Positions 3,305-59,560 of a stretch of DNA of 64,000 nucleotides are shown piece after piece. The position numbers were made by a program, and so were the translations under genes. The DNA is from Candidatus Micrarchaeia archaeon. GTDB taxonomy: Archaea; Micrarchaeota; Micrarchaeia; CABMEP01. The stretch is from assembly GCA_038886535.1 (NCBI GenBank), contig JAVZXS010000001.1, positions 180,636 to 244,635 of the forward strand, read 5' to 3'. The notes under the pieces were generated by a model. It was not told the origin of the DNA and ran no database searches. It saw only the letters and a list, made by a program, of their open reading frames with translations. Numbering within the stretch: position 1 is the stretch's first letter; every line of letters begins with the position of its first letter.

Positions 3305-3397
3305 TTGCTCACTTGCGGTAGTAATAGATAAATATTCTTATTTAAATATCTATTTTATAAAATAAGTATTAAAAGTATTCTATAGTAAGATTCCATT

Positions 3398-3958
3398 ATG
3401 CAGAAAGAGAATCTTAATACCGTAGGAAAGAAGTTTCTAGTGGACATAATGCTAATAAAACTAGGAAGATGGTTGAGAATACTTGGCTATGACTGCAAGA
3501 TTCCAAAAGAGAGTGAAATAGAAGATGAAGATTTATTGGATATTGCAGAGAAGGAAAATAGAACATTGATAACGATGGACAGATCTCTTTCCAAAAGAAA
3601 AACAAAAACAAGTATAATCTATATTCCTTCAGAATTTAATTCAGTAAAAGCACAACTTGAATTTTTAATTAAAAACAAATATATCGCTAATCCGATAGTT
3701 GGAGGAAATATCGAAGAAAGAGTCGAATCATTAGTAAGATGTTCAAAATGCGGTTCAATTCTTTTTGAGATAACGAAAGAAGAATTAAATGATATATACA
3801 AAAAGAAAATAGAAAAAAATAAAAGAGAGGATATTGATAAAGCCTTATCGTCCTATAATCTGTTTTGGATTTGTAAAAACTGCCATCAGATATACTGGAA
3901 AGGTAGTCACTGGAAGAAAATTATTGAATTTTTGTCAAAACTAGAAGTAAAAGATTAA
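3398..3958 (+). CDS. Mut7-C (DUF82) PIN-like RNase domain protein with C-terminal zinc ribbon
   Basis: FLVDIMLIKLGRWLRILGYDC matches the Mut7-C N-terminal motif. The C terminus carries CSKCGS...CKNCHQ. Confidence 0.6.
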   Translation: MQKENLNTVGKKFLVDIMLIKLGRWLRILGYDCKIPKESEIEDEDLLDIAEKENRTLITMDRSLSKRKTKTSIIYIPSEFNSVKAQLEFLIKNKYIANPIVGGNIEERVESLVRCSKCGSILFEITKEELNDIYKKKIEKNKREDIDKALSSYNLFWICKNCHQIYWKGSHWKKIIEFLSKLEVKD

Positions 3959-3972
3959 GGAAAATTAAAGCT

Positions 3973-11190: not shown

Positions 11191-12528
11191 TTATGTTCCA
11201 TACATTTTAGCTTTTTTTATTATTCCCATTACTATTGGCATTACATTTAAATGCGTTATATTTCCTAATCCTCCTTTTGCTGTACTCCTTTCATCAAATC
11301 TTTTAACATCGTCGTTACGAATCATATCTCTTGGACCCCATATTAGTATAGGAACAGGATCTGCTGAATGAGATTTCATACTGCACGGGGTAGAATGATC
11401 GCCAGTTAAAACAACAACAGTATCCTTAAGTTTAGTTATAGGTTTTAATGATTTGTCTATTTTTTCTATCATTTTCACTTTCGTTTTCCAATCCCCATCA
11501 TGTCCGGCTATATCTGTTGCTTTTATATGTAAAAATACAAAATCATATCTTTCTAGGGCATTGATAACTGATTTTATTTTACCTTCTAGATCTGTATCAT
11601 ATCCAGCAGTAGCAGTCGGAACATTTATTATATCCATTCCAATATATTTTGCAACCCCTTTATATAATGCTCCTCCTGCAACGCAAGCAGCCTTCATTTC
11701 ATATCTTTCAGAAAACGGAATTACTCTTACTGCCCATCCATATAATCCTCTATATTCTGCTCCTTCTTCTATTCTTCCTTGCATTTTTTCTATCATACTA
11801 GCTCCACGTGTCATTATTGAATTTGCAACTTTCAAATTCTTTCTTTTTCTTTCTTCATTTAACTTGTGTTTTTCAAGTATTCTGTTTATTTCTCTTATTG
11901 TTTCATTTAAAACTTCAGAAGTAATCTCTGCGCTTTCACTTTCGTCTAGTGGTTTAGCCCACTGCATTCTTCCTTCGTGGTGTGAATCTGTATCACTAAT
12001 TAGAGGATTAAGTTTAAAATCTGGATCAAGACTTCTAATTACTAAAACACCTCTATGTGATTTAGTATGATGGAATCTGGATTCAAATTCTCTTGTTTTT
12101 CCATTCTTATCTTTTATTTTGACTTTTATTGAAGAGATAGACTTGGAAATTTCTTTTGCTTCATCATTACTCATTCTGCCAGCTCTCCTATCAGTTATAT
12201 ACCACTCATTTCCTTTTTTTTCTACGGTGCAGAAATTAGATCGGAATGCGATCTCTCCAGGTCTAATTTCTATTCCAGCACCTAGAGCTTCAAGTATCCC
12301 TCTTCCAACATAGAATCTGAATGGATCATATCCAAAAATTGCTAAATGTCCAGTGTCGCTTCCAGGAACCCATCCAGGTCCAACAGGATAACTTATTCCA
12401 GTTATTCCTTCTTTTGCCATTCTATCAATATTCGGTTTTTTTGCAATTTCAAGAGGTGTCTTTCTATTTTTTTCATTTATTGGTCTATCCCCAATTCCAT
12501 CTAAAACAATGAAAACAACTTTAGTCAT
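11191..12528 (-). CDS. apgM: 2,3-bisphosphoglycerate-independent phosphoglycerate mutase, archaeal type
   Basis: VVFIVLDGIGDRP and the SDTGHLAIFGYDP metal-binding motifs. Length is about 445 aa. Confidence 0.8.
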   Translation of the reverse strand: MTKVVFIVLDGIGDRPINEKNRKTPLEIAKKPNIDRMAKEGITGISYPVGPGWVPGSDTGHLAIFGYDPFRFYVGRGILEALGAGIEIRPGEIAFRSNFCTVEKKGNEWYITDRRAGRMSNDEAKEISKSISSIKVKIKDKNGKTREFESRFHHTKSHRGVLVIRSLDPDFKLNPLISDTDSHHEGRMQWAKPLDESESAEITSEVLNETIREINRILEKHKLNEERKRKNLKVANSIMTRGASMIEKMQGRIEEGAEYRGLYGWAVRVIPFSERYEMKAACVAGGALYKGVAKYIGMDIINVPTATAGYDTDLEGKIKSVINALERYDFVFLHIKATDIAGHDGDWKTKVKMIEKIDKSLKPITKLKDTVVVLTGDHSTPCSMKSHSADPVPILIWGPRDMIRNDDVKRFDERSTAKGGLGNITHLNVMPIVMGIIKKAKMYGT

Positions 12529-12619
12529 TTACTCACTAAGAAGTAATCCTTAGCAATATTTTTTAATATTACTTTCTTTATAACCTTTAAGGATTTACAA
12601 TAATCCATGGAGCGGTTTT

Positions 12620-13090
12620 ATGAAGCCTGCAACACTATGTTTCTTTTTCAGGAAAAATAATGGAGAAGAAGAGATTCTTCTTGCAATGAAAAAGAGAAGG
12701 TTTGGAGCTGGAAAATGGAATGGATATGGAGGAAAGATAGAGGAAGGCGAACCTCTTTTAGAGGCGGCATGCAGAGAAATAAAAGAAGAGAGCGGTTTAG
12801 ATGTTGAGCCTTCTTCGTTAATAAAGATTGGTGAGATTGATTTTAAAGTAAAAGATAAGCCAGAGTGGGATCAATTTGTACACGTATTCAAAGTAACTGA
12901 ATGGAATGGAGAGCCGGTAGAGACGGAAGAGATGAGGCCAAAATGGTTTAAGATAAAAGATATTCCTTACGATGAAATGTGGGAAATGGACAGGATTTGG
13001 ATTCCTTACATGTTAAAAGGAAAGTTTATAAATGCAAAATTCATATTAGATTCAGATGGAGAAAGGATATTGTATTATAATATAATTTAG
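12620..13090 (+). CDS. Nudix hydrolase
   Basis: Nudix box GGKIEEGEPLLEAACREIKEESGL. Confidence 0.8.
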   Translation: MKPATLCFFFRKNNGEEEILLAMKKRRFGAGKWNGYGGKIEEGEPLLEAACREIKEESGLDVEPSSLIKIGEIDFKVKDKPEWDQFVHVFKVTEWNGEPVETEEMRPKWFKIKDIPYDEMWEMDRIWIPYMLKGKFINAKFILDSDGERILYYNII

Positions 13091-13113
13091 TTTATTTACT
13101 TAGGGGGGAATTT

Positions 13114-16100
13114 GTGGCTGGTTTAAATCTGAGAATATTTTTTATTTTTTTTATCGTTTTGTTCAATATAAATTATGGTTTATCTTATCTCAATAACTGT
13201 AGTAATTTAAATATTAATGGTGAAACTTATATCCTGACAACTAACGTTTCTTCAACAACTATCTGCTTTAACATATCAGCCAATAATATAACTCTTGATT
13301 GCAATGGGAATACGATTTATAGCTATAATAATGCAGTAGCTAATGCTTCAATAATTACAAATGCTGCGTTAACAGGTATTGTCATTAAAAATTGTAATTT
13401 TATTGGAAATGATTCATACATTCTTTTTTTCCCATATGGTAATTTAAATTCAAAACTTATTAACAATTCATTTAAAAACTGTTATTATTGTAGTTGGATA
13501 CAATCTGATAATAACATTTCTATAATTAACAATTCTTTTTATAATTCTAGAAATGCGATTCATTTTGTTGGAACTAGTGGTTTCAACATCTCTAATAACC
13601 TTTTTTCAAACATCAGCTCCAGATCTATTTCTGCTGGTGGGTTAGATTCTAATCCAAGTTTAGTTAAAGTAATCGAGAACAATTTCTTCCTCAATACTTA
13701 TAGAGGAATTTATAATGGTATGACTTTGACACATATCAATTCAAATGAATTCTATAATTGTGGAGAATATTGTATTTATTTAGCTTCTGCACAAAACAAT
13801 TCAATTTTTAATAACAATATAAGTAATTATTCAATATATGGCTTAATTTTGGATTCATCGTTAGGAACTAATATATCTACAAACATATTTAATTCAACTG
13901 TAGGTAGTGCTATAGTTTTAAGAAGTAGTGATGTAATTTCTGTTTTTAATAATACGATATATGGTCCTTTGATATTAGAGAGCTCTCGGAATGATACTAT
14001 ATTCAACAATACAATTTTGACTGCAGGAATAGCATTACACGCCTATTCTCCCTATTATGAAAACGAGAATAATCAAATATTTAACAATTCAATAGTTAGT
14101 ATTGATTCTTATGCTATTCGATTAGTTAGTTCTAAAAATAACTTAATCTATAATAATATACTGAAAGGATCTGTTCCAGTAGAAGTCGTTGACACTTTAT
14201 ATACTAATTATTGGAATACAACAATTAATTGTTCTGGCGCGAGAAATATAGTTGGCGGTCCGTGTATTGGAGGTAATTTTTATTCTAACCTGAATGAGAC
14301 AGGTTTTTCAGAAAACATTAATGTATGTTCACCACAGTCAAATAAAATATGTGGAAATTCATATACCATACAAACTAACAATATTGATTATGCACCAATA
14401 ACAAATCGTTTGTTAGCACCATCTTGTAGTTCACAATTAAATGAACCAAATACGATTTATATTATGTGGAGTTCTCAAGTTACACCTGGGACGTGTTATA
14501 CAATTACAGCAAATAACGTTACACTCGACTGTAAAGGATATACTATTACATATGCTACAGGATCTAATTATGCGTATGGAATATATTCTGGTGGCTATAA
14601 TAACTCTGTAATTAAAAACTGCAAACTTATTCAAAATACAGCTCCAAGAAATAATGCACATGGAATTTGGTTTGCAGGAAGTTCAAATAATAAAGTTGAA
14701 AATGTTTCTATAAATATTGTTGGAAATCAAAGCAACGGTATTTATTTAACTTATTCTTGGCCCAATCCATCTAATTACAATTTTATTAAAAACACAACTA
14801 TTACTATGTCAGGAGTGCAAGGTCATGGTATAGATATTTATGGATCTTATAATAACTTCTCAAATATTTCAATTGTAACAACTGGAATGTATGGAAATGG
14901 AATTAATTTCGATCCTTCTTCAGATTCAAATTACAACATATTTACAAACATGTCAGTAAAGGATACAGGTTCTTATTCCTTTGCAATTCAATTGCGTGGT
15001 AATGATAATAGATTCTATAATAATTTAATTAATAGTAGTTCTACTTCTCCAGTTTCAGTAACATCTGGTTCTAATTCATTTAATACAACGCTTACAATGG
15101 GAACAAATATAATTGGCGGTAATTATATTGCCGGTAATTTCTGGGCAACTCCTTCAGGAAACGGTTTCTCTGAAACATGTACAGACAATGATGGAAACGG
15201 GATCTGTGATGCAACTTATACTATCAATTCAGATAACATCGACTATCTCCCGCTTGCAGTTCCTCCAATTCAGTTAACAAGTTGCGGTACTCTTGATAAG
15301 ACAGGAAAAACGTACTTATTAATTCAAAACATTACTACCTCTAATGATTGTTTTATAATAAATAAAAGTTATATAACGCTAGATTGTCAGAATAATACTA
15401 TTACAGCAAATAGAGGTGTTTTGATTGGCTTTCCAGGACGGGAAAGTTCTTCAAATATAACCGTTAAGAATTGTATAATAAACAGTGCTTATGATGGAAT
15501 AGACTTAGGGGCTTGGAGTTATAATACTAATATTACTATTTTAGGAAATAAAATTATTAGTCAATATGCGAATGGTATCGCTTTTGGAACTGTAGCAGGT
15601 TCTAATATTAATATATCTAATAATATAATTTATTCCCCTAGATGGGGGATCTATATAGTCAGCGGTTCAGGTTATATAACAAACAATACAATTGTTCAAG
15701 TAGACTGCAATTATGGAGGATATCCTCCTTGTGGTGGTTTAATTTTATATGGTGGTTCAAATTTTAATATATTACATAATTTTATAAACTCAACAAACGC
15801 ACACGGTATTGTTTTTGCAGATTACTTAGGAACTACAGCAGATAACAACTTAGTTATCAATAATCTTATTTATACTAATTATTGTGGTTTTCGTTTTCAA
15901 CCTTATAGTAAATGTGGAGCAAGGAATAATATCATAGCTAATAGTACTATTATAGCAATTGGTACAAACAGCTGTGGAATATATTCAGACTGTCCAATAA
16001 ATACTACGTGGTCTAATATTACAATCAACTCTGAAGGAACAGATTTTATTTCATTATATTCAATAAATAATACTTATTTTAATGTAACATTCAATTCTTC

Positions 16101-19100
16101 TTTCTACCCAACTAAGGTAAGTTTTACTCATAATGGCAGCATTAAAATAAATTCAGCTGATGCAGTTCCTTCTTCAGGATACTACAATGTTTCCAAATAC
16201 CTTAACATCACAAACTCAACACCTGCATGGGTATACATTAATTTCACATACTCAAACGATACAATAGGAGAAAATGAAACAAAACTCAAACTCTATAGAT
16301 GGGATGGGTCTGCATGGAATGAAGTTCCAGGAAGCGGAGTAGATACTGATAATAAGATAGTTTATGGAAATATTACACAATTCAGCATATTTGCTCCACT
16401 TGCAGTTGCAGATGCGATTCCCCCATCAATTCAATTGATATCTCCTGAAAATGATACATATACAAACCAAAACAGTATGACCTTCATTTTCAATGCAACA
16501 GATGATCAGAGTTCTACATTAAACTGCAGCCTTTACATAAATAATGAAATTAACCAGACAAACGAAAGTTTTGTAAATGGTTCAGTTACTTCGTTCTCAT
16601 TGACAAATATTGCAGATGGATATTATACATGGTACGTTAATTGTTCTGACGCTTCTGGCAATAGCAATGTCTCAGAAACAAGAACATTTACAATTGACAC
16701 AATTCCTCCATCAGTCTCTATCACATCTCCATCTTCAAATTCATATCTTAATTCAAAGATAATAACAATAACTGGTACTTCATCTGATCTAAATTACAAT
16801 TTCACAAACATCTCAATCTGGCAGGGAAGCACACTAATTAATTCAACAATCACAACTAGTACTTCATGGTCAGTCCAGCTTGCAGCGCAGGATGACGGAG
16901 TATATAGCATAAGTGCTGTTGCATATGATCTTGCAGGTAATGAAAATTCAAGCAATATAACAGATATAACAATAGATACTACCATACCTCAGGTTACAAT
17001 TATTTCTCCATCGCAATCATCCCCGATTTATTTGAGGAGCAGCGTTCCAGTCCAACTTAAATTCAATTACAATGAAACCAATCCTGCAAACTATACAGCT
17101 CTACTAATAAACAGTTCAGGACAAAGAGTATCAAACATATCAGAGAGTTTAGCTATTAGTGGTGATGTGAATATTACGGCATCACTGTCAACTACTGGAC
17201 TGCCTAATGGAAACTATTCAATCAATGTTACAATTTTTGATAAAGTAGGACACACTGTAACTGTCTCAGAGATCAATAATGTAATTATAGATAATGAAAT
17301 ACCTGGTGTAATAATTAATTCGCCTTCATCTGGCCATTATATTATAGGAGACACAATAGTTTTGAATCTTACAATATTTGATGACAATCTCAATTACACT
17401 CAAATCACGATCTATAACGCATCAGAATCTATTCTAAATTACACCACTAATCAGTCTGGAACATTTACAATAAACTTCACTCTTCCAGATGATATATATA
17501 CAATAAATGTAACCTCCTTTGATCTGTCTGGAAACAATGCAACCGCAACTGTCACTGGTGTAGAATTAGATTCAACATCACCATTCTATCTAAATAACTG
17601 CTTGGACATAACAATGCCAGGAGAATACTATCTTGTAAATAATATTTATTCAACTAATGTCACTTGTATATTCATAGATGCAGATAACGTGACTGTTGAT
17701 GGTCAGGGATATGAAGTACGCAACCTTGGAAACCCAATTATTCCGGGAATATTTGTACAGGATAGGAAAAACATTACGATTCAAAACATAATAATCTCTC
17801 ATTATGATCCAGATATTCAAATGATTAATGTAACTGATGCAAAGATTTACAACGTAACACATAATGGAGGACAAATTGAAATTATATATACTGATGCAGA
17901 AATTAAGAATTCAAGATTTGAGAATAGCAGTTCAGAAGGTATGGTTGCAAATCTTTCAAACATTATCATAAATAATACAATTATCAAAAATAGCCAATCT
18001 GATACATTATATATATCATCTTCTAATGTAAGCATTTTAGGCTCACATATTCAGAACTCTAATGGAGTAAAAGGCATTTCCATTTCTGGACAAAACAGCA
18101 TAATATCAATAGCATCATCAAGTATTATTCTGCAAACAGCAGACAATGCAGATGTAATTGATGTTGATGTTTCATCAACAGATAACCTATATCTATCAAT
18201 TTCAGATTCAAACGTAAGCAACCAAAACAGTTTCATACATTTAAGAAATTCAGCTGGTTTTGAATCCAAGAATATTTCAATTAATGTTTTCAGAAACAAT
18301 ATTTTCAACTTCTCAAAAATTATATCTTCAGATTCACCAGTTAATGGATCAGGAAAGATCTTATTAACCAGTGATATTCATGGAAACTACTGGGGAAGAT
18401 CATCTTACCCATATGTGAATTTATCAGACTTCCAAAATGTTTCAGATGTCTCAGATGAGCTTCCTTATAAAGAAGCAGATGGATGGAATAAGGAAGCAAG
18501 ATTCAGATTAAATTCTTCAAGCTATAATTTTGCATCAAAAGATGGAAAGCTGTCAATTTTAATGCCATACAACCCATCCTCACCAAATGACAATCTTGTC
18601 TTAAGCAGGCTAGAAAATGAAGTCTTCGTAATAACAGATCTTCCTTTAATGCATTTAGCTGCTGAAAACTCAATAGTAAATGCAAGATTGCACTATTTAT
18701 TTGGAACTTACGAATCTGTGTATTTGCCAGTTGAAGAAAGAGAAGGCCTACTTTTAGTAACTCCGTTACCTATTGAAATCAAGGTAAATCTTTCAGATGA
18801 TTTCAACACAAGTGAAGCAGATGATATTTCCTCAATTGAATTCGATGAAAATGGATTTATAAAAGATCTCGGTGGAAAATTCGTTTTTGACTCAAATGAA
18901 GAATCTTTCAAGCTAAAGCTTAACATCATTAATGGTTCAATTGATTTCTTAATAGGAAAGAAGGAATCAGATCTTATACTTTTTGACAATGTAAGCCCAA
19001 CAGTCTCTCTACGTCAATCCGGTTCTATAGTTATTGCAGATTATTTAGATCCATTACAACAAGTGATTCAGAGAAATGATGGAAGAGGCAATGCTTATAA

Positions 19101-21270
19101 GGAAGTGAATTCAGATCAAATTATTCCATTGTTCCTGCCAAATGGGGCAATGGTCAGTAATGCAACGATGACACTTTCACCTCTCTCAGGAACTCCTTCA
19201 TTCAACGTTTCAATCTACTTAAGAAACAACGTGACTTCATTATCTTCAGCTGAAAGATATTACTTTAATGAAATCTCTTCTCTCTCTTCACCTATTACGT
19301 TAGACTTAACTTCAAGTATGCAATCAGCTCTTGGAAATTGCAGCCAATTGCATAATGGTTCATATTGTTTATTCTATATCAGTATCAATGGTTTGAATGA
19401 TGGAGAATTCAATATTTCAGAATTCAATTTCAATTATTCATATTCATCTGGAATCAAGTTGCCAGATGTAAATACCAGTGGTACAATTACATCTCTTGTG
19501 GAAATACCAAAGCATGAACCAGATGTTTTCTATCTAAGCGATGGAGGAACTGATGTCCTAGTTATTTCATTGCCTTTCAAGTCATACATAAAATCAGCAC
19601 AGATAACATTAAGTGGAGAAGAGTGGGAAGGCTCTTATCCATCTAATGTCAATATGTGGATAGGAAACGGATCAACATCACCCAGAACGCCATTTGTTAC
19701 ATATTCTGGTGAATTCAATACTTCCATACAAATAATTGCACCATTTGTTTCTGCTTTAAGGAACTATACATCAAGCGCAGATGCTGACCATAAAGGTAAT
19801 GTCCTAATACCATTAACACTTAATTCATCAACAAAGGGTAAGGTCAGGATCAGTTCTATAAGTGTTGATTATGATTTAAGAAATGCATACGATTTAAACT
19901 CTCCATCGTATATCTATGGATTCAATGATGGAAGTGAAGTTAAAACAGTAACATTTACAAACTCCTCACCATCTACAATCCTCTATATAGATATTCCAAA
20001 GTATTCCAGAGTTTCAAACATCTCAATCATATCAAGCCCTTCAGAGAACATTACATTCAATATTGACTTCCTAAACGATGGAGTTATAGAGATTGAGAAT
20101 AGTACAATGATAAGGCAACTCAATCTTACTCAATACCTACAAAATTGTTCTCCATACAAATTTAGAATTCCATTTGGAAGATTGTGCAAGGTTGCAATTA
20201 ACATAACAGCCAATCTTGATGCGTATCCAAATGTTTATTCAGATTTCGAAGTTACAAGTTCATTTATCTCAATGCCTTGGCGATATGCCGGATCTGATTC
20301 AGAAATAATAAGAGAAAGCGAAAAGAGGTTTGACTTTCTTACTATCCCAACTGGAGCTGCCAAGCGTGCAAGGTCTCTATCATTAGAGCACCGTTCAATC
20401 TACTCATTACAATCAGGTGATATTGTTATCGGCTATGGATTAGATATGGCTGGAAATAGAGGAAGTGGCAATTATACATTTATAGTTGCCGGCCCACCCA
20501 CTCCACCAGCAATAACTCCACCATTAACAAAGATTCCATTATCTGGATGGATGAATTGTACTAATTCATTAGCATATGTAATAACAGAACCAGGTGCTTC
20601 AGTTACTGTTTTGTTTAGGTCAAGCGGCATGTTTGTTACAGGAGGAACAGCGGATTCAAATGGAAGATTTGAGTTTATGCCTTTATTGAGTGGAGACTAT
20701 ATTATCCGTGTATCTAAATCAGGATTTGAAGATAATCAAATTACACTTACTGCAAATATTTGTATTGTTGAGACGCAAATTTCTACAAAGAAGTCACTCA
20801 TCTGTTCTCAAGATAAGTGCAGTATTAATCTTTATCTTGCAACAAACAAGATTTCAGACTTCCAGTTCAGGCTTACAGACTTTATACCGTCGCAAGTAAT
20901 AAAAACAGTTAATTCGATAGTTGACAGATTCGGAAAGGTGTTCTATAGTTATAGCTATACAGATTCTTTAATTTCTATTCCATCCACTCAGAAGATAACG
21001 AGTACATTCTCAGTTATATTAGATACGGTTTTGACCGCTATTCCAAACTACATTGAAAATGAAAATAAATTCATATATTCAATAACTAATACTGCTGCAG
21101 ACGTTGAACTTGATGAGATTATAATACCATTGCCTGAAAATGCAAAAGGAAAGGAAATTGCATCAATCGAGTACATTGATGCAGACGGTTCAAAGATAAA
21201 TATAACGGATTACACAGTGGAATATGACAGGATTATTATCCACCAGTCAGTGATTATTAAGAAACAGTAA
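13114..21270 (+). CDS. Giant (2,718 aa) secreted surface protein built from tandem right-handed parallel beta-helix modules, Ig-like domains and a carboxypeptidase-regulatory-like domain, with very many N-x-S/T sequons
   Basis: Signal peptide MAGLNLRIFFIFFIVLFNINYG. PbH1-type repeats such as NNSIFNNNISN and NNTIYG recur. Four modules open with C..C...(I/V)TLDC. Three Ig-like repeats follow (DTIPPSVSITSPSSNSY, DTTIPQVTIISPSQSS, DNEIPGVIINSPSSGHY). A PPTPPAITPP linker precedes the C-terminal domains. The uninterrupted 8.1-kb ORF in AT-rich DNA is itself strong evidence of coding. Confidence 0.8.
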   Translation: MAGLNLRIFFIFFIVLFNINYGLSYLNNCSNLNINGETYILTTNVSSTTICFNISANNITLDCNGNTIYSYNNAVANASIITNAALTGIVIKNCNFIGNDSYILFFPYGNLNSKLINNSFKNCYYCSWIQSDNNISIINNSFYNSRNAIHFVGTSGFNISNNLFSNISSRSISAGGLDSNPSLVKVIENNFFLNTYRGIYNGMTLTHINSNEFYNCGEYCIYLASAQNNSIFNNNISNYSIYGLILDSSLGTNISTNIFNSTVGSAIVLRSSDVISVFNNTIYGPLILESSRNDTIFNNTILTAGIALHAYSPYYENENNQIFNNSIVSIDSYAIRLVSSKNNLIYNNILKGSVPVEVVDTLYTNYWNTTINCSGARNIVGGPCIGGNFYSNLNETGFSENINVCSPQSNKICGNSYTIQTNNIDYAPITNRLLAPSCSSQLNEPNTIYIMWSSQVTPGTCYTITANNVTLDCKGYTITYATGSNYAYGIYSGGYNNSVIKNCKLIQNTAPRNNAHGIWFAGSSNNKVENVSINIVGNQSNGIYLTYSWPNPSNYNFIKNTTITMSGVQGHGIDIYGSYNNFSNISIVTTGMYGNGINFDPSSDSNYNIFTNMSVKDTGSYSFAIQLRGNDNRFYNNLINSSSTSPVSVTSGSNSFNTTLTMGTNIIGGNYIAGNFWATPSGNGFSETCTDNDGNGICDATYTINSDNIDYLPLAVPPIQLTSCGTLDKTGKTYLLIQNITTSNDCFIINKSYITLDCQNNTITANRGVLIGFPGRESSSNITVKNCIINSAYDGIDLGAWSYNTNITILGNKIISQYANGIAFGTVAGSNINISNNIIYSPRWGIYIVSGSGYITNNTIVQVDCNYGGYPPCGGLILYGGSNFNILHNFINSTNAHGIVFADYLGTTADNNLVINNLIYTNYCGFRFQPYSKCGARNNIIANSTIIAIGTNSCGIYSDCPINTTWSNITINSEGTDFISLYSINNTYFNVTFNSSFYPTKVSFTHNGSIKINSADAVPSSGYYNVSKYLNITNSTPAWVYINFTYSNDTIGENETKLKLYRWDGSAWNEVPGSGVDTDNKIVYGNITQFSIFAPLAVADAIPPSIQLISPENDTYTNQNSMTFIFNATDDQSSTLNCSLYINNEINQTNESFVNGSVTSFSLTNIADGYYTWYVNCSDASGNSNVSETRTFTIDTIPPSVSITSPSSNSYLNSKIITITGTSSDLNYNFTNISIWQGSTLINSTITTSTSWSVQLAAQDDGVYSISAVAYDLAGNENSSNITDITIDTTIPQVTIISPSQSSPIYLRSSVPVQLKFNYNETNPANYTALLINSSGQRVSNISESLAISGDVNITASLSTTGLPNGNYSINVTIFDKVGHTVTVSEINNVIIDNEIPGVIINSPSSGHYIIGDTIVLNLTIFDDNLNYTQITIYNASESILNYTTNQSGTFTINFTLPDDIYTINVTSFDLSGNNATATVTGVELDSTSPFYLNNCLDITMPGEYYLVNNIYSTNVTCIFIDADNVTVDGQGYEVRNLGNPIIPGIFVQDRKNITIQNIIISHYDPDIQMINVTDAKIYNVTHNGGQIEIIYTDAEIKNSRFENSSSEGMVANLSNIIINNTIIKNSQSDTLYISSSNVSILGSHIQNSNGVKGISISGQNSIISIASSSIILQTADNADVIDVDVSSTDNLYLSISDSNVSNQNSFIHLRNSAGFESKNISINVFRNNIFNFSKIISSDSPVNGSGKILLTSDIHGNYWGRSSYPYVNLSDFQNVSDVSDELPYKEADGWNKEARFRLNSSSYNFASKDGKLSILMPYNPSSPNDNLVLSRLENEVFVITDLPLMHLAAENSIVNARLHYLFGTYESVYLPVEEREGLLLVTPLPIEIKVNLSDDFNTSEADDISSIEFDENGFIKDLGGKFVFDSNEESFKLKLNIINGSIDFLIGKKESDLILFDNVSPTVSLRQSGSIVIADYLDPLQQVIQRNDGRGNAYKEVNSDQIIPLFLPNGAMVSNATMTLSPLSGTPSFNVSIYLRNNVTSLSSAERYYFNEISSLSSPITLDLTSSMQSALGNCSQLHNGSYCLFYISINGLNDGEFNISEFNFNYSYSSGIKLPDVNTSGTITSLVEIPKHEPDVFYLSDGGTDVLVISLPFKSYIKSAQITLSGEEWEGSYPSNVNMWIGNGSTSPRTPFVTYSGEFNTSIQIIAPFVSALRNYTSSADADHKGNVLIPLTLNSSTKGKVRISSISVDYDLRNAYDLNSPSYIYGFNDGSEVKTVTFTNSSPSTILYIDIPKYSRVSNISIISSPSENITFNIDFLNDGVIEIENSTMIRQLNLTQYLQNCSPYKFRIPFGRLCKVAINITANLDAYPNVYSDFEVTSSFISMPWRYAGSDSEIIRESEKRFDFLTIPTGAAKRARSLSLEHRSIYSLQSGDIVIGYGLDMAGNRGSGNYTFIVAGPPTPPAITPPLTKIPLSGWMNCTNSLAYVITEPGASVTVLFRSSGMFVTGGTADSNGRFEFMPLLSGDYIIRVSKSGFEDNQITLTANICIVETQISTKKSLICSQDKCSINLYLATNKISDFQFRLTDFIPSQVIKTVNSIVDRFGKVFYSYSYTDSLISIPSTQKITSTFSVILDTVLTAIPNYIENENKFIYSITNTAADVELDEIIIPLPENAKGKEIASIEYIDADGSKINITDYTVEYDRIIIHQSVIIKKQ

Positions 21271-22622
21271 TGGTGATTTGGATGGAGAATGAAATGGAGA
21301 AAATAAGTAAAAAAATTAGATTAGGCAAAAAGTTAAGTATTGCATTTATTCTCCTACTGATCCTTTCTCCATTGACGTATGCGCAAAACCAATTTGTAAT
21401 AAATTTCGGAACACTTCCATTTGGAAATTGCACTTATAATTCTCAGTGTACATCAAATCTTTGTGTAGAAGGTCAATGTGTTGCATGCACGGCAGATAAA
21501 AATTGTTCTTCAAACCTATGTGAAAACGGAATCTGTATTTCATGTTCTTCAGATTCTCAATGTAGCAGATCAACTAATTACTGTTTGAACGGTGTTTGTA
21601 CTGCTTGCTTGAGCGATTTGTCATGTTCTACAGGTCTTTGTTTGAATGGAGTATGTACAACATGTTCAAATGATATTCAATGTGCAGCAACAGGTTATCC
21701 TTGTATTTCAGGCAGATGTCAGCCATGCACGTCTGACGATCAATGCAGTGTTGGAATCTGCCAGGCTGGAGGAAGATGTAAATCCTGCAGTGAGATCGGA
21801 TGTCCAAACAACTGGATTTGTAATGCGGATACTGGAAAGTGCAGCTGCAGAAGCAATGGCCAATCATGTACATCAGGGTTAGAGTGTTGCACTGGTACAT
21901 GTAGAGCTGGAAGCTGTGCCTTATGTATACTTAATCAAGAATGTCAATCTGGGCAGGTTTGCTTAAATGGATTCTGCGTTCCAGAATCCGAAGCACAACC
22001 ATCACAACTGCCACCAGTTCCTACAACTACAAGTGGTGGAAGAAAATCTTCATCTTCAGATTATCAACAAGCGATCTCTATTCAGAGGGAAGTTGAAAGA
22101 GAGGCTGCAGCACCATTTATATACTCTATTTTCGGTGTAAGCAAAACAAAAATACAAGCAAGTGCTACATGTATAAAAGGTGCTTTATGTAGCACCAGCG
22201 CAGATTGCTGTGGTGCAGAATGTGTCAATGGCCAATGTTTATGTGCTAAAGGAGCATGTGTAACTTCAGGTGAATGCTGTACAGGTTATTGTGAAAACGG
22301 AGTATGTAGAAATCCACCTGTAATGAGTCTTTTCATTGCAGATGCCTTAAATAAACCGATAACATCCCAATTTGCATGCAGCGGTTTGATTGAAGAATGC
22401 GATCCAACTGAAACGCAATGTATTTCAATATGCAATGGTTTAACTGGTCTTTTAGCTTTGGTTTCTATAGGGTTTGGATTCTTTGTCTGGAGGGAATTTA
22501 ATCATCCAGTTCCCGGTTTGGTTGGTGTATTTGTTCCCATCTTAATAGGATTGATCACCTATCCATTTGTAGGGATAATAGTGGGAATAATAATGTTAGG
22601 ATTAATGCTTGCAAGACAATAG
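21270..22622 (+). CDS. Membrane-anchored cysteine-repeat surface protein (signal peptide, tandem Cys modules, Ser/Thr linker, C-terminal TM helices)
   Basis: Start overlaps the giant gene stop (TAATG). At least six tandem ~19-aa repeats of form C-x4-6-C-x3-4-G-x-C-x2-C. A second Cys-rich domain CCGAEC..CCTGYC follows, then two C-terminal TM helices. Confidence 0.7.
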   Translation: MVIWMENEMEKISKKIRLGKKLSIAFILLLILSPLTYAQNQFVINFGTLPFGNCTYNSQCTSNLCVEGQCVACTADKNCSSNLCENGICISCSSDSQCSRSTNYCLNGVCTACLSDLSCSTGLCLNGVCTTCSNDIQCAATGYPCISGRCQPCTSDDQCSVGICQAGGRCKSCSEIGCPNNWICNADTGKCSCRSNGQSCTSGLECCTGTCRAGSCALCILNQECQSGQVCLNGFCVPESEAQPSQLPPVPTTTSGGRKSSSSDYQQAISIQREVEREAAAPFIYSIFGVSKTKIQASATCIKGALCSTSADCCGAECVNGQCLCAKGACVTSGECCTGYCENGVCRNPPVMSLFIADALNKPITSQFACSGLIEECDPTETQCISICNGLTGLLALVSIGFGFFVWREFNHPVPGLVGVFVPILIGLITYPFVGIIVGIIMLGLMLARQ

Positions 22623-22639
22623 TTTAAAAGAGTGATAAT

Positions 22640-23161
22640 ATGTCAAAATATTCATTAGTGTTGTTTACAATTTTATTAGTATCGTTTGTATTTTCTTTAT
22701 CTGATCTTGGAGGTCCTTGTAAATATACTGGAGAGTGTAGACAAGGATTTTGTCTGAATAATACTTGTAGATTTCCTCAAGTTCTTGAAAAATATACAAT
22801 AGGTGAAAATTGCAGTTACACTGCACAGTGTAAAGATGGCTTTTGTAAAGATGGAGAGTGCATAATTCCATTGAGAGAGGAGACGCAGCTTCTTTCATTT
22901 GGAATTAAATCTGGCTGTGCAGGAATAATCGAGAACTGCACAGGTTATTTCTGTTTACTTTGTGACTTTTCATGGATACTTCTGATTGTCTCTGCAAGTA
23001 TTGCCTCATTCGTTGGAAGAAAGAGAGGAAGGTTACTGCCGGTCTTACTATTCGGTTTGCCTATGTTATTAGGTTTGATAGTTTTTCCAGTTCTTGGTTT
23101 TATGCTTGCACTTATAGAAATTTTAATTCTAGGAATAACAAAGAAAAAAGTATCTGGATAA
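22640..23161 (+). CDS. Small paralogous cysteine-repeat membrane protein
   Basis: Signal peptide. Two Cys modules (CKYTGECRQGFCLNNTC and CSYTAQCKDGFCKDGEC) of the same type as the preceding gene. C-terminal TM helices. Confidence 0.6.
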   Translation: MSKYSLVLFTILLVSFVFSLSDLGGPCKYTGECRQGFCLNNTCRFPQVLEKYTIGENCSYTAQCKDGFCKDGECIIPLREETQLLSFGIKSGCAGIIENCTGYFCLLCDFSWILLIVSASIASFVGRKRGRLLPVLLFGLPMLLGLIVFPVLGFMLALIEILILGITKKKVSG

Positions 23162-23231
23162 AATAGAGGAATCAATTATCATCTGTCGTTTTTAAACGAG
23201 AATGAATATAAAAATTTGCTTATAATATTTA

Positions 23232-24209
23232 TTGAGGCAGTATATGATAGGCGACAATATAAAAAGAGTGGAAGAGATAAGATATCTTATAAGCAAAAAG
23301 ACATTTGAATTAATGAAATACAAACTTTTAGGTAGATCAAATTTAGAAGATTTAGAGTCAGAGTTAAACTTATTAAAACAAGAAATGGCAAATCATCTAT
23401 CTTCCATTCAAGATGCAGGTTATGTATATATCTTAATTAATAAGAGAGAGATAGAAAAATTAAAAGAAGATTTCACAAAACTTTCTCAGGAGGAAAAGAT
23501 AAATGCATTTAAAGAAATAGGAAAAGGTTATGAAATACTTTTTAAATCCAATTTACTTCTTAAGAAAAACTACGAAAATAGAGAAACTATAGCTACACTC
23601 ATACTCTCTCTTCCGGCAGATGACAAGATAGTTCAGATCGTAAAGAATTATTTAGAAGGTTACTCTGATGGTGGAGAATTTAAGTTAGAAAGTCAACTTG
23701 CTTCCTCTAGGATTTCTTCACTTATTTCTTCTTTAGGTTTTATCTCTTCTTTCGAAGGTGAAAATGTTATTTTAGGAAATTCATTTAACAAAAACAAATT
23801 AAAAGAAGAAATAGTTAAAGATGTTTTTCCAATAGATAATGATATAACGGAAACTGGTTCTGATTTAAGACGTCAAGAATTTCTTGATTCGCATATTAGA
23901 GCAGAAATAAATGATATAGAAGAAACAAAGCCAATACCAGCACAAATTTTAGATAAAAATGAAAATAAAGAAAATTATAAGGAGAGTACAGGTCAAAGCC
24001 AATTATCTTCAGAAGATCTTCAACCAAATCTGACATATAATGAAGTATGTCAAAAGATAGAAGAAATTATGAATAATTACAAGATGAAAAGATGGGTTCT
24101 AGGCGCATTTAAGGACGATGAAGAAAAAAAACAATACGAAAAAATACAATCACTTTTAATCAAGCTTATTCGTCTGAAACAGTCAATGGAAGAAAAAGGG
24201 GAGAAATAG
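23232..24209 (+). CDS. Hypothetical coiled-coil protein
   Basis: Long ORF, charged and helical; no motifs I recognise. Confidence 0.4.
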   Translation: MRQYMIGDNIKRVEEIRYLISKKTFELMKYKLLGRSNLEDLESELNLLKQEMANHLSSIQDAGYVYILINKREIEKLKEDFTKLSQEEKINAFKEIGKGYEILFKSNLLLKKNYENRETIATLILSLPADDKIVQIVKNYLEGYSDGGEFKLESQLASSRISSLISSLGFISSFEGENVILGNSFNKNKLKEEIVKDVFPIDNDITETGSDLRRQEFLDSHIRAEINDIEETKPIPAQILDKNENKENYKESTGQSQLSSEDLQPNLTYNEVCQKIEEIMNNYKMKRWVLGAFKDDEEKKQYEKIQSLLIKLIRLKQSMEEKGEK

Positions 24210-24240
24210 GTAAAAAGAAACAAAAGACAAAAATAAAAGT

Positions 24241-25431
24241 TTAGAATTTTAATTGTGTACCTAGAACTAATTTTGAATCCTGTCTGTTTTCTTCGTTGTA
24301 AAGTCTGATTATTTTCTGGAGCGTATGTGTATATCCGATCTTAATCGCAAAGTTTCTTATAATCTCTCTTTTATAATAGAAATTAATTGTGTCTATAACT
24401 TCTTTTTCTAGGAAGTTATTAAATGATCCGTCTGTATCATTATATTTTCTAGTTGTTTTGGTGTACTCTCCTACAACTAAGTTCTTTCCTAATGTTATAG
24501 GTAATCTTACTCCAATTTCAGTTTTACTTGTCTTTATATCATTGTTTCTTTTGTGTGTTTCAAATACAAAATAATAAGCACCAGGTTGGCAGCTTCCAAG
24601 ATAGCATATATCCCCTTGAATTGCATATTCATCAATATCGTCTAAGGAATGATTTATAGTTCCTTTAGCCTTGATAAACCAAATTATGGGAGTTATATTT
24701 TGATTTATTATATATTGTAAATAAAATTTGTTTCCCATATAAGATGCATTCATATCTTCATTTAACATCTCGTTATTATTTTTATCTCCATATATAGTTA
24801 TTGGGTTTCCATTTACATCATAACCTATGAGTAAACCTACATCCTTACGTAAAGAGTTGTATTTCATAACCCACTTTTTCTGTATTTCTTCATTGTAGTA
24901 ACCAATTCCAAATTTTATTTTTTCATTAACCCCATCTGGCGCTATACTTGTGCCAATACCAAAAAATCCACCAGTTAATTTTGTTTCGTCATTATTTTTA
25001 TAATCGGTGTAATCTCCATATATAGATTTACCTGTATATTTTGAATCTATGGATTCTTTTCCTCTGTTTATTTCGATCTGTAAAAATGTTCTTCCAACTA
25101 CTTCATTCTTCCAATAAATAGAAACATTAGAATATGTATTTGAGACATTGTCTTTGCTATTAAAATAGTTATCTTTTTGGATTTCAGAAATATTTTTATC
25201 ATCTATATGATATTCGTATTCTATTACAGTTCCATTTTCATAATGCTCCTTTATGAATGGAGTTTTAATTGGATCTTCGGCCTTAATGTTCCTTCCAAAA
25301 ACCATCAAACTAAGACCAAGAATCCCTATTTTTGCAGCTTTCCATATTCTATTTTCTTTTCCCATATTTTTAGGTCTAACATTCTCACAATTTTTTTCAA
25401 TATTTTCCATATTCCTCCCACCAATAATCAA
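24241..25431 (-). CDS. Secreted beta-rich protein with outer-membrane-barrel-like features; likely start at the internal MGKEN (about 25365)
   Basis: Signal peptide KAAKIGILGLSLMVFG. Y/G/N-rich alternating strands (KIKFGIGYYN, VGLLIGYDVNG, FAIKIGYTHTL). Terminal residues VLGTQLKF end in Phe. Confidence 0.5.
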   Translation of the reverse strand: MIIGGRNMENIEKNCENVRPKNMGKENRIWKAAKIGILGLSLMVFGRNIKAEDPIKTPFIKEHYENGTVIEYEYHIDDKNISEIQKDNYFNSKDNVSNTYSNVSIYWKNEVVGRTFLQIEINRGKESIDSKYTGKSIYGDYTDYKNNDETKLTGGFFGIGTSIAPDGVNEKIKFGIGYYNEEIQKKWVMKYNSLRKDVGLLIGYDVNGNPITIYGDKNNNEMLNEDMNASYMGNKFYLQYIINQNITPIIWFIKAKGTINHSLDDIDEYAIQGDICYLGSCQPGAYYFVFETHKRNNDIKTSKTEIGVRLPITLGKNLVVGEYTKTTRKYNDTDGSFNNFLEKEVIDTINFYYKREIIRNFAIKIGYTHTLQKIIRLYNEENRQDSKLVLGTQLKF

Positions 25432-44181: not shown

Positions 44182-44252
44182 GCCAGGTTGGCAGAGCGGC
44201 GATGCACCCGCCTGCAGAGCGGGAAAGGGGGGTTCGACTCCCTCACCTGGCT
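44182..44252 (+). tRNA. tRNA-Cys (anticodon GCA)
   Basis: Acceptor GCCAGGT/ACCTGGC, anticodon arm CCCGC-CTGCAGA-GCGGG, T-arm GGGGG-TTCGACT-CCCTC. Confidence 0.8.
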
Positions 44253-44660: not shown

Positions 44661-45539
44661 TTGTTTCTTTATCAGTGTTATTTAAATTTTAGTGGTGGTA
44701 AGATGGAAAACTTTAAAAAGGTAAAAGAGGAGAGATCTGAAAAAGAGATTGAATCATTTAAAGACATGAAAAAAGATGACATCTCTAAAATAGAGGATTA
44801 TGATGAAAAAAGAGATCAAAAGCTGTGGGACTTCTATTACGCAATTGTAGACAATGATATAAAAACGATAAAGGAATTTTTAAAGGAAGGTTTTAGTCCT
44901 AATGAAGAACTTCCATTTCCATCAGAAAATACAGTATTCTTTGAATCCCTTCCTTATGTGTCTTTGGAAGCACTTGAAATTCTGTACAATCATGGAGCAC
45001 AAGTTGTAGAATATGATTCTGACGGAAACGTTTTTCATACAGCTTTTCAAGAATTGATAGCTTTAGACAGACCCGAAATAATTGAAAAATTGATTGATTT
45101 AGGTGCAGATTGGAAGGTTAAGAATTTGGGTTGCTCAATGTTATATTATGCATCTAGCTCCGCAAGTTCTCTAAAGGTATTTCTTGAGAAAACAGATCTT
45201 GATGTAAACGAAGAAGCAGAAGATGGCACTACCCCAATTTACATGGCAGCTGTTCATCATGATAGAGATGCAATTAAGATGCTATTAGAACACGGTGCTT
45301 TAATAAACAAACAAGATAAAAATGGATTCACTGCTTTGCACCATATCTTCAAATCTGATGATTTAAGAGATGAAAACAAAAGAATAGAAGCGATTAGGCT
45401 ACTTCTTGAAAATGGCGCAGATCCAAATATAAAATCAAATGAAGGCAAAACACCTCTTGATTATGCTATCGAAAATAAGTTTCTAGAAGAGGCAGAGGTT
45501 TTGCGAAATAAAGGCGCAAAATTAGGGAAAGAAATCTAA
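44661..45539 (+). CDS. Ankyrin-repeat protein (likely start at MENFKK, about 44703)
   Basis: Several canonical ANK repeats (TPIYMAAVHHDRDAIKMLLEHGALINKQDKNGFTALHH, ...GKTPLDYAIENKFLEEAEVLRNKGA). Confidence 0.75.
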   Translation: MFLYQCYLNFSGGKMENFKKVKEERSEKEIESFKDMKKDDISKIEDYDEKRDQKLWDFYYAIVDNDIKTIKEFLKEGFSPNEELPFPSENTVFFESLPYVSLEALEILYNHGAQVVEYDSDGNVFHTAFQELIALDRPEIIEKLIDLGADWKVKNLGCSMLYYASSSASSLKVFLEKTDLDVNEEAEDGTTPIYMAAVHHDRDAIKMLLEHGALINKQDKNGFTALHHIFKSDDLRDENKRIEAIRLLLENGADPNIKSNEGKTPLDYAIENKFLEEAEVLRNKGAKLGKEI

Positions 45540-58170: not shown

Positions 58171-58321
58171 GACAAATATTTTTTTATAAAAATTTATATT
58201 TTTTTCTTAAAGGATCGCGTATAAAAAAATAACAGGACACAGTATAAATTTTATTTACATACTTTAGCTGCTTAATGGAAAAGTATATATATTTAAATCG
58301 TTCCTTAATTTTGTGATTTTT

Positions 58322-59560
58322 ATGAAGAACATATCTATTTTAGGTTCTACAGGAAGTATAGGTACTCAGACATTAGACGTTATAAGAAATCATAAGAATA
58401 AATTTAGAGTAGTGGGTTTAGCTGCATATGGTACTGATAAAGATATAGATCTTATGGTTGAGCAGATACATGAATTTAAACCTAAAATCGTATCAATGTA
58501 CAGAACCGATGCAGCGATTAAGCTTAAAGAAAGATTGATGCATGATAATTTAGGTTATGGTCAAAAGATAGTGATCCTATCTGGTAATGAAGGTCTTATT
58601 TCAGTTTCTACTTTCCCTATGGTTGATACAGTTGTAACTGCAGTTGTTGGAAGTGTCGGCTTAATTCCTACACTAGAGGCAATAAAGAAAAAGAAAAATA
58701 TAGCTCTTGCAAACAAAGAAACATTAGTGTGTGCTGGAAGCATAGTTATGGAAAATGCAAAAAAGTACGGAGTAAAAATTATGCCAATAGATAGCGAACA
58801 TTCAGCAATTTTTCAGTCTTTACAAGGTAATAAAAAGGAGCAAGTAAAGAGAATAATATTAACATGTTCAGGAGGTCCATTTAGAGATGAAAAATTATGG
58901 CCCGCAGAAAAAATAAATGAAGCGACTCGAGAACAAGCACTTAAACATCCAACCTGGAATATGGGTGGAAAGATTACTATTGACAGTGCAACACTCATGA
59001 ATAAAGGTTTAGAGGTTATAGAAGCTCATTGGCTTTATAATATTCCTTATGAACAAATTTCAGTTGTAATACACCCTCAGTCTATAATTCATTCAATGGT
59101 TGAATATGTTGATGGTTCTATAATGGCTCAGATTGGTGTTCACGATATGCGTATTCCGATTCAATATGCGTTATCCTATCCAGATAGATTACCAAGCGGT
59201 GATTATGCATTTTTAGATTTGATTAAAGTTTGTAATCTTACATTTTTTGAACCAGATACAGTCAGATTTCCAGCTCTATTATATGCATACGAAGCAGGCA
59301 AGATCGGCGGAACAATGCCTACAGTTATGAATGCAGCAAATGAAGTAGCAGTTGTAGAATATTTCTTACAAGGAAAGATTAAATTCGGTGACATAATAAG
59401 AGTAGTAAGACATACGATGGATGTCCATAAGCATACAGTTGTTCAGAATCCAAACCTTCAAGACATTCTTCAAGCAGATATATGGGCAAGAGAACACGTT
59501 CGTTCGGTTTTAAATGTAGTTATACAAGATAAAAGTTGGAAAAATATAAATTCATTCTAA
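58322..59560 (+). CDS. dxr: 1-deoxy-D-xylulose-5-phosphate reductoisomerase homologue
   Basis: NADPH-binding ILGSTGSIGTQTLDVI, LANKETLVCAG, metal and substrate residues MPIDSEHSAIFQ, and full-length colinearity with DXR. The listed ORF starts at a GTG 9 nt upstream. Confidence 0.8.
   Translation: MKNISILGSTGSIGTQTLDVIRNHKNKFRVVGLAAYGTDKDIDLMVEQIHEFKPKIVSMYRTDAAIKLKERLMHDNLGYGQKIVILSGNEGLISVSTFPMVDTVVTAVVGSVGLIPTLEAIKKKKNIALANKETLVCAGSIVMENAKKYGVKIMPIDSEHSAIFQSLQGNKKEQVKRIILTCSGGPFRDEKLWPAEKINEATREQALKHPTWNMGGKITIDSATLMNKGLEVIEAHWLYNIPYEQISVVIHPQSIIHSMVEYVDGSIMAQIGVHDMRIPIQYALSYPDRLPSGDYAFLDLIKVCNLTFFEPDTVRFPALLYAYEAGKIGGTMPTVMNAANEVAVVEYFLQGKIKFGDIIRVVRHTMDVHKHTVVQNPNLQDILQADIWAREHVRSVLNVVIQDKSWKNINSF

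Follow-up and report, generated by a model that had tools for sequence, protein, structure and literature searches.

Several described surface proteins come close to a three-gene locus in a 64,000-nucleotide stretch of DNA (the window) from a Candidatus Micrarchaeia archaeon (assembly GCA_038886535.1, contig JAVZXS010000001.1, positions 180,636 to 244,635), in which the gene of a giant protein (g1) is followed by genes of a cysteine-rich membrane protein (g2) and of a small paralogue of its C-terminus (g3). In the S-layer of Sulfolobales, the stalk protein SlaB combines a coiled coil with a single transmembrane (TM) helix. The SPEARE giants of Nanohaloarchaeota reportedly unite domains of three kinds (protease, adhesion and restriction endonuclease) within a single polypeptide and are said to have no separate Cys-repeat anchor pair. 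In Giardia, variant-specific surface proteins and high-cysteine membrane proteins consist of tandem Cys modules with variable distal parts, a conserved C-terminal anchor and a single TM helix. SlaB forms an S-layer pair with SlaA (bioRxiv 10.1101/2021.04.28.441871, citing Veith et al. 2009), and in Metallosphaera it is a trimer (PMC11329633). The S-layer protein of Micrarchaeota, SLP_Mh (Micr_00292), has ~101 kDa, contains PF05123 and has almost no sulfur-containing residues (bioRxiv 10.1101/2021.04.28.441871). In Methanobrevibacter and Methanosphaera, adhesin-like proteins (ALPs) join a right-handed beta-helix to 'archaeal big' immunoglobulin (Ig)-like repeats, sometimes with a CarboxypepD_reg-like domain; they are proposed to bind microbes, and the anchor described for them is a single TM or amphipathic helix of their own, mostly N-terminal (PMC11532034). 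Cryo-electron tomography of Micrarchaeota has revealed contact sites and filaments, to which no molecule is assigned in the literature found. Publications on Micrarchaeota or DPANN archaea with cysteine-rich, giant or adhesin themes gave no account of the anchor family or the gene triad described here. We read the locus, with a probability of about 0.65, as a three-subunit surface complex encoded by split genes, which would represent a surface-display system specific to the Micrarchaeota lineage.

The locus resembles SlaA/SlaB in its adjacent same-strand genes, in a large outer protein lacking a TM helix next to a smaller, C-terminally anchored stalk, and in a probably non-covalent assembly. 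However, the predicted stalk of g2 is a disulfide-knotted array of Cys repeats with three TM helices and a paralogous partner, g3, and the head of g1 varies, is dispensed with in one lineage and forms part of a cis fusion in others. Searches of Pfam, NCBIfam and PDB did not connect the proteins with SlaA, SlaB or any S-layer family by sequence or profile, and membership in this pair fails. SLP_Mh is, like g1, a secreted and apparently N-glycosylated surface protein of the same phylum whose membrane attachment is unresolved, but g1 has ~300 kDa and Cys-rich partners (7-12% Cys in g2 and g3), and PF05123 is absent among its Pfam matches at E ≤ 0.1; g1 is not the known S-layer protein of Micrarchaeota. 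The right-handed beta-helix and tandem Ig-like (Big) repeats by which ALPs are defined are both present in g1, whereas the anchor here is probably a separate Cys-rich pair with three TM helices each or a C-terminal fusion, and g1 is larger, with ~1,000 C-terminal aa (amino acids) that hold no known domain. With SPEARE proteins the locus shares a giant secreted or surface protein of a DPANN archaeon and a proposed host contact; the difference is set by their description, the domains named there being absent here. The likeness to the Giardia proteins, likewise surface proteins of a host-dependent cell, is an analogy only; they are eukaryotic and show no detectable homology.

Gene order among relatives supports the proposed reading. 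Open reading frames (ORFs) were called in 51 retrieved loci as well as the window, and hidden Markov models (HMMs) were used for g3, g2, g4 (the gene downstream of g3), g1M (the conserved middle of g1) and g1C (the C-terminal module of g1). The census comprises 42 non-redundant g3 loci, of which 36 are informative, having ≥300 nucleotides (nt) upstream of g3. A same-strand gene with a C-terminal g2-type anchor ends ≤187 nt upstream of g3, usually ≤45 nt, in 33 of these 36, and a g1C-bearing gene immediately precedes g2 in all 17 loci with a complete g2 (~420-460 aa) and sufficient upstream DNA. The GC content of the loci ranges from 28% to 59%, so the synteny does not reflect recent shared ancestry alone, and the arrangement has survived deep divergence. 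The tight same-strand clustering of g1, g2 and g3 is robust.

An exhaustive search with the g3 profile over 1.84 billion cluster representatives (E ≤ 1e-3) gave 96 matches, 48 of them at ≤ 1e-10. In a scan of 185,579 species genomes, true relatives were confined to metagenome-assembled genomes (MAGs) of Micrarchaeota/Micrarchaeia, and every named or genome-placed true relative belongs to this group except one on a 4.4-kb contig binned as Thermoplasmata. The best matches of g2 and g3, at 97-100% identity, come from MAGs named 'Candidatus Micrarchaeia archaeon'. The Cys-repeat genes are therefore neither widespread nor unlinked to giant surface genes; the opposite outcome would have told against the sequence-only reading of this DNA. 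A homologue search with g1C alone returned a single match, P0149; since its word index misses giants, it is uninformative on the distribution of g1C, which was taken from the HMM scans of the loci.

The exceptional contig (L008; GCA_038845735.1, JAWBQK010000092.1) carries a complete g1C-g2-g3 triad in a bin named 'Thermoplasmata archaeon'. Because its GC content is 29.6% and all other relatives lie in Micrarchaeota, it is probably symbiont DNA mis-binned with the host lineage. The NCBI name of its g2 homologue (P0015), 'sodium/calcium exchanger protein', is unsupported by the profiles run on the g2 of the window. Loci from Bdellovibrio and Deltaproteobacteria (L019, L020, L050 and L051) were rejected because they share generic Cys-repeat units only and have no anchor, and a viral origin was rejected as well, IMG/VR being without g3 relatives. 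The remainder of the window holds archaeal housekeeping genes (Rad50, MCM, primase, Nre, XPF, aminoacyl-tRNA synthetases, ribosomal protein L3), and the locus sits on the chromosome of a DPANN archaeon of ~32% GC, not on a mobile element.

A search for co-occurrence of the Cys-repeat genes with giant beta-helix proteins had been proposed as a check. A conserved linkage was indeed found, but the giant head has no share in it. Alignment of the giants with g1 is confined to its C-terminal ~1,000 aa, their heads being rearranged or unrelated, and the proximal region of g1 (aa 1733-2470) is itself unmatched in L028 and in a minimal form of 312 aa. This minimal form is the upstream gene product of L004 and L005, where g2 is 46% identical to that of the window, and it consists of a hydrophobic N-terminus and a homologue of g1 aa 2474-2702. 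As it retains g1C only, the invariant set comprises g1C, g2 and g3. By sequence comparison, g2 and g3 are linked with the final ~250 aa of g1 (g1C), and the head is replaceable or even absent. Identity to the window ranks in the order g2 anchor ≥ g3 > g2 repeats > g1C >> g1 head. In L006 the values are 74% for the g2 anchor, 67% for g3, 61% for the g2 repeats and 41% for g1C, and the distal head finds no colinear match in the giants of L006 and L007. Across the triad loci compared g3 keeps 45-90% identity and g1C 26-93%. The distal head (aa ~27-1050) is the fastest-diverging part of g1, with 85% identity to the closest relative, L010, against 97% for g2. Conservation thus declines with distance from the membrane.

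The tethering of the giant by g2 and g3, suggested earlier from the gene arrangement, is supported by proteins that hold head, g1C, Cys repeats and a g2-type anchor in one ORF. P0084 (2,279 aa), named by NCBI 'right-handed parallel beta-helix repeat-containing protein [Candidatus Micrarchaeota]', contains beta-helix repeats, Ig-like domains, a CarboxypepD_reg-like domain, C-x5-C-x4-C-x4-C repeats and the anchor, in this order, and P0079 and P0086 repeat the order on a smaller scale. An N-terminal extracellular region, a CarboxypepD_reg-like g1C part and a C-terminal anchor are common to P0084, P0079, P0086, P0090 and P0128; beta-helix and Ig-like repeats could be read in P0084 and P0079, and g2-like Cys repeats in P0084, P0079 and P0086. 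Two more giants (L035 and L036), each with >3,300 aa inside the retrieved sequence, lie on one 70-kb JGI contig, Ga0315289_10000382, and the full length of the L036 giant (P0112/P0146) is 5,107 aa. In both, a g1C-like module (HMM positions 12-207, independent E-values of 3e-15 and 6e-15 with filters off) is followed by Cys repeats and a g2-type anchor (…YPFVG…), and each has its own g3 gene 10 nt downstream. Default hmmsearch missed g1C in the fused giants of 3,300-5,100 aa while finding it in a 2,605-aa fragment of one of these proteins, and the option --max recovered it. In L016, a 3,237-aa protein with 220 Cys ends in a Glu-type anchor, and a g3 homologue follows after 2 nt. The domain order of the fused proteins equals the order of g1 and then g2 in the window, which is a classical signature of one unit after gene fission or fusion.

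The last ~150 aa of g2 align with nearly the whole of g3 (BLASTP, 3e-8). The two proteins, which had been described as carrying a signal peptide, disulfide-rich modules and C-terminal TM helices, are by this similarity paralogues. Both have the juxtamembrane 4-Cys motif, and for each of them three TM helices are predicted. In g2 (450 aa, 54 Cys), six tandem C-x5-C-x4-C-x4-C-x2 units and further Cys modules occupy aa 54-236. They are followed by a low-confidence linker (243-299) with a conserved non-Cys motif, REVER.AAAPF..IFG, a second Cys cluster (301-346), and the juxtamembrane 4-Cys motif with the three TM helices (370-450). An alignment of 15 sequences shows every one of the 54 Cys to be invariant or almost invariant and YPFVG to be invariant at the turn between TM2 and TM3, while the N-terminus is unconserved, so that the true start of g2 may be a downstream ATG. 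The 22-sequence alignment of g3 (173 aa, 12 Cys) contains two C-x5-C-x4-C-x4-C modules, an invariant KSGCAGIIENCxGxxCxxC directly before TM1, a basic RKRGR loop after it and then a hydrophobic stretch of 35 residues, the predicted TM2-TM3 hairpin. Within this stretch P141, P150, G153 and a membrane-embedded Glu, E160, are invariant, and a Lys-rich tail (KKK) forms the C-terminus. The juxtamembrane 4-Cys motif, TM1, the basic loop and the Pro-kinked TM2-TM3 hairpin occur in both g2 and g3.

AlphaFold 2 (AF2) modelled g2 with a mean predicted local distance difference test score (pLDDT) of 65 overall, 71-84 in the Cys-repeat region and 77-84 in the C-terminal helices (387-410, 413-429 and 432-449). 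The model has short beta-hairpin Cys modules, a disordered linker and three C-terminal helices, without a long coiled coil; the pLDDT of the g3 model is 71. The basic RKRGR loop, the KKK tail of g3 and the modelled helices fit a three-TM topology with the N-terminus outside and the C-terminus inside, which both proteins probably adopt. Pfam and NCBIfam gave nothing on g2 or g3 beyond sub-threshold toxin or EB-module noise, the g2 profile had no significant match to PDB sequences, and a Foldseek search of PDB with the g2 model returned just 25-residue knottin toxins (E > 0.5), which were not taken as homology; Dickkopf-like matches of g2 were likewise insignificant (E > 0.5). These null results of profile, sequence and fold searches, together with the absence of PF05123 from g1, agree with the earlier impression that the arrangement matches no familiar S-layer or pilus locus; a placement of all three proteins in a characterised S-layer or adhesin system, which would have told against that reading, did not result. 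Among the 96 profile matches, every match to the anchor region has the module at or within ~150 aa of the C-terminus. The anchor-bearing proteins fall into size classes of 170-250, 400-700 and 935-4,390 aa, with the anchor at the C-terminal extremity. The Cys of g1C, g2 and g3 all occur in conserved even sets, C2482 and C2550 of g1C being kept or lost together, which argues for internal disulfides and a non-covalent assembly.

As noted from the sequence before, g1 has a signal-like N-terminus and no membrane anchor of its own at the C-terminus. Its sole hydrophobic segment is aa 1-26 (mean Kyte-Doolittle 2.19), which may be a signal peptide that is cleaved off or an uncleaved signal anchor, and no C-terminal helix is present. 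Pfam matches comprise NosD (4e-27, four stretches), Beta_helix (5e-10, five stretches), Big_13 (6e-22, three stretches, the best at aa 1112-1196) and Big_7 (2.5e-8, aa 1199-1268). Below threshold are Big_6 at aa 1429-1481 (24.5 bits against a cut-off of 27.6), CarboxypepD_reg at aa 2493-2545 (31.7 bits against 32.3) and the NCBIfam model Ca_tandemer in the Ig-like region. A beta-helix N-cap motif, C..I...N[IV]T[LV]DC, occurs four times (aa 51, 461, 746 and 1518), and the relation among the beta-helix modules is also visible in an alignment of g1 aa 718-931 with aa 16-239 of L003. No significant PDB sequence match was found for aa 1731-2718, nor any Pfam match for the proximal region. N-x-S/T sequons number 125 where 66.2±6.8 are expected (2,000 shuffles, z = 8.6), and g1 is thus likely N-glycosylated. 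The last 218 aa hold one sequon compared with 7-19 per 250 aa elsewhere, a near-absence that fits a buried interface. A C-terminal sorting signal of the PGF-CTERM/archaeosortase kind (motif, TM helix and basic tail) is absent, as g1 ends in ...DRIIIHQSVIIKKQ with no hydrophobic stretch, and the NCBIfam scan of g1 returned no sorting-signal model. DNA tandem repeats or phase-variation cassettes underlying the protein repeats were not found in positions 12500-24300.

The three ORFs lie on one strand exactly as had been placed before, with a GGGGGG Shine-Dalgarno-like run ahead of the GTG start of g1 (2,718 aa), a one-nucleotide overlap of the g1 stop with the g2 start (TAATG) and a gap of 17 nt between g2 and g3. 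A translational coupling had been proposed on account of the TAATG. The overlap occurs in the window and L010 only, and other relatives have small overlaps of the called ORFs or gaps of up to 76 nt, mostly 4-40 nt. Strict coupling of g1 and g2 is therefore possible, although not as a conserved feature. Oligo-T runs serve as terminators in archaea, which is the basis for a candidate terminator, a T5 run in a small palindrome after g3. Together with an AT-rich TATA-like sequence upstream of g4, it suggests that g1, g2 and g3 form a transcription unit. A NUDIX hydrolase gene ends 23 nt ahead of the g1 start, so either the promoter of g1 lies within the NUDIX gene or both are co-transcribed; this adjacency is unconserved, L001 having a divergent MarC gene upstream instead. 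In L012, an 85%-identical relative, the giant gene is split into ORFs 3-2789 (≥928 aa) and 2882-4465 (527 aa) with a 92-nt gap; a frameshift, a pseudogene or misassembly could account for the split.

From these sequences we infer a contact of g1C with g2/g3 and a heteromer of g2 and g3. The g1 protein would be exported as a variable, heavily N-glycosylated head of beta-helices and Ig-like domains that ends in the nearly sequon-free g1C. The g2 protein would be type-I-like, with a disulfide-knotted Cys-repeat array as a rigid stalk, resistant to proteases and acid, and with the C-terminal 4-Cys motif and three TM helices as anchor. Within the membrane, the small paralogue g3 would pair with the anchor of g2. 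The invariant intramembrane Glu of g3 would probably mediate this pairing and is a likely driver of association, because polar residues promote the association of TM helices. On this pedestal of g2 and g3, g1 could be held non-covalently by docking of g1C, and the fast-evolving distal head would most likely bind a ligand on another cell or surface, for example a host of the Thermoplasmatales type, with glycans or proteins as the most plausible targets. A wider proposal is tentative and clearly less probable than the complex itself. The locus would then be a phylum-specific modular display machine, in which a disulfide-knotted, heteromeric pair of three-TM anchors carries interchangeable giant heads in cis or, via g1C, in trans, and the head decides attachment to, and specificity for, wall-less Thermoplasmatales hosts. 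The rigid Cys stalk would possibly carry the head outward across a pseudo-periplasm like that of Ca. Micrarchaeum harzensis (20-25 nm).

Several observations weigh against the three-subunit complex. The AF2 models of the two monomers reach no more than moderate quality (pLDDT 65-71, predicted TM-score 0.32-0.35), and the suggestion of an adhesive or host-contact role comes just from the types of domain and the gradient in variability. On the contig with the two fused giants, the g3 copies are 93% identical while their partner anchors share only 66%, so g3 is not tuned to an individual partner; this near-identity of the g3 copies also points to gene conversion or to a strong constraint acting on g3. 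In L015, L017 and L018, g3 (35-43% identity) stands solitary among ribosomal or other housekeeping genes, and hence does not strictly need an adjacent partner, its partners, if any, being encoded elsewhere. Finally, the hydrophobic N-terminus of g1 could be an uncleaved signal anchor, in which case tethering by g2 and g3 would be unnecessary. Then g1 would anchor itself, and g2 and g3 would be separate, co-transcribed Cys-rich membrane proteins, perhaps a second surface component or a receptor. The strong hydrophobicity of aa 1-26 and the solitary g3 genes are compatible with such self-anchoring, and most methanogen ALPs are described with one N-terminal TM helix as anchor (PMC11532034), but the fusions hold head, g1C, Cys stalk and C-terminal anchor in one polypeptide, and the linkage in all 17 loci is to the C-terminal module of g1, which is nearly free of sequons and is all that the 312-aa form retains. 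Self-anchoring is therefore unlikely, if the best of the alternatives.

Slightly less probable again is an S-layer of the SlaA/SlaB type, with g1 as the lattice-forming canopy and g2, with or without g3, as the membrane stalk. The logic would be the same, a smaller membrane-anchored protein following a large outer one that is glycosylated and has no TM helix, and Gfrerer et al. leave the anchoring of the Micrarchaeota S-layer open, so that a second stalk protein is conceivable (bioRxiv 10.1101/2021.04.28.441871). Yet the known Micrarchaeota protein of ~101 kDa carries PF05123, which is lacking in the ~3x larger g1, and the g1 head is poorly conserved and absent in one lineage, unlike a lattice protein. 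One contig bears two different fused giants, and none of Pfam, NCBIfam or PDB links g1, g2 or g3 to S-layer families. The least probable explanation, that g3 and perhaps the g2 anchor are a maturation factor (a membrane thiol-disulfide oxidoreductase or export helper that folds the Cys-rich neighbour), can point to the invariant C105-x2-C108 at the start of g3 TM1 and the invariant intramembrane Glu, to the almost constant position of g3 beside very Cys-rich proteins and to the near-identical g3 copies expected of a generic factor, but the same module forms the C-terminal end of the giants themselves, g2 has C-x3-C in place of the CxxC of g3, neither protein shows similarity to DsbB, VKOR or any Pfam or NCBIfam family, and the extracellular part of g3 is built from the same 4-Cys modules as its putative substrate.

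Table 1 Positions of the genes, predicted modules and neighbouring features within the window.
Feature	Coordinates	Strand	Basis or remark
NUDIX hydrolase gene	12620..13090	+	
g1, predicted secreted giant head protein	13114..21270	+	N-terminal signal-like segment, no C-terminal TM helix, Pfam domains, sequons
g1 distal head, three putative right-handed beta-helix modules, aa ~27-1050	13192..16263	+	NosD/Beta_helix stretches, N-cap motifs at aa 51, 461 and 746
g1 Ig-like repeat region, aa ~1090-1490	16381..17583	+	Big_13, Big_7, sub-threshold Big_6 and Ca_tandemer
g1 fourth beta-helix-like module, aa ~1494-1800	17593..18513	+	N-cap motif at aa 1518, internal similarity to earlier modules
g1 conserved proximal region, aa 1733-2470, no known domain	18310..20523	+	33-92% identity in most giants reaching the region
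g1C module, aa 2461-2718, CarboxypepD_reg-like domain and ~165-aa terminal domain	20494..21267	+	precedes g2 in 17/17 informative loci
g2, predicted stalk and anchor, 450 aa	21270..22622	+	signal-like segment, Cys repeats, linker, second Cys cluster, three predicted TM helices
g3, 173-aa paralogue of the g2 C-terminus	22640..23161	+	signal-like segment, two 4-Cys modules, TM1, loop, TM2-TM3 hairpin (predicted)
Candidate terminator, T5 run inside 6-bp palindrome TCGTTTTTAAACGA	23186..23199	+	read from sequence, 25 nt past the g3 stop
g4, ~321 aa from ATG 23244, charged, cytoplasmic, no TM helix	23244..24209 (ORF from 23232)	+	conserved neighbour of g3
tRNA-Cys	44182..44252		just upstream of the ankyrin-repeat gene
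Ankyrin-repeat protein	44661..45539	+	Ank_2, 2e-35
Dxr, complete	58313..59560	+	PF02670, PF08436 and PF13288

Downstream of g3, homologues of g4 are found in ~15 loci (L001, L002, L006, L007, L010-L013, L021, L023, L025-L027, L029 and the window). They directly follow g3 in most of them, with other genes intervening in L006, L007, L025, L027 and L029, and are absent from L004. The start of g4 is probably the ATG given in Table 1, because its homologues begin with MIxDN. It has no Pfam, NCBIfam or PDB match and is not counted within the system, although it may be a cytoplasmic partner of the basic loops of the anchors. Elsewhere in the window lies a gene for Dxr (1-deoxy-D-xylulose-5-phosphate reductoisomerase; Pfam matches at E 1e-39 to 1e-43), a bacterial-type enzyme of the methylerythritol phosphate pathway, whereas archaea normally make isoprenoids via the mevalonate route; a horizontal acquisition is possible. 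As part of a reduced symbiont genome, the window also encodes an ankyrin-repeat protein, and such repeats are typical of host-interaction effectors.

The locus matters because little is known of how DPANN archaea recognise their hosts and keep hold of them. Its anchor represents a membrane-protein family that is absent from Pfam, NCBIfam and PDB and combines a juxtamembrane disulfide motif, three predicted TM helices, an intramembrane Glu that is invariant and a small paralogue as obligatory partner. Together, g1C, the Cys-repeat anchor and g3 form a compact gene set by which the major giant surface proteins of this phylum can be recognised and their buried and exposed ends predicted. A natural fusion and fission series, from the minimal 312-aa form over the split proteins of 2,718 and 450 aa to the fused giant of 5,107 aa, would allow the mounting of the head to be tested, and the g3 profile provides a handle to search for the locus in cultivated Micrarchaeota co-cultures. 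The anchor family and this series are new and experimentally tractable; they represent no new principle, being akin to two-component or anchored surface proteins. The anchor family could explain how host-contact proteins are displayed, and if the modular display machine were true, it would supply the missing molecular handle on the recognition between Micrarchaeota and their hosts.

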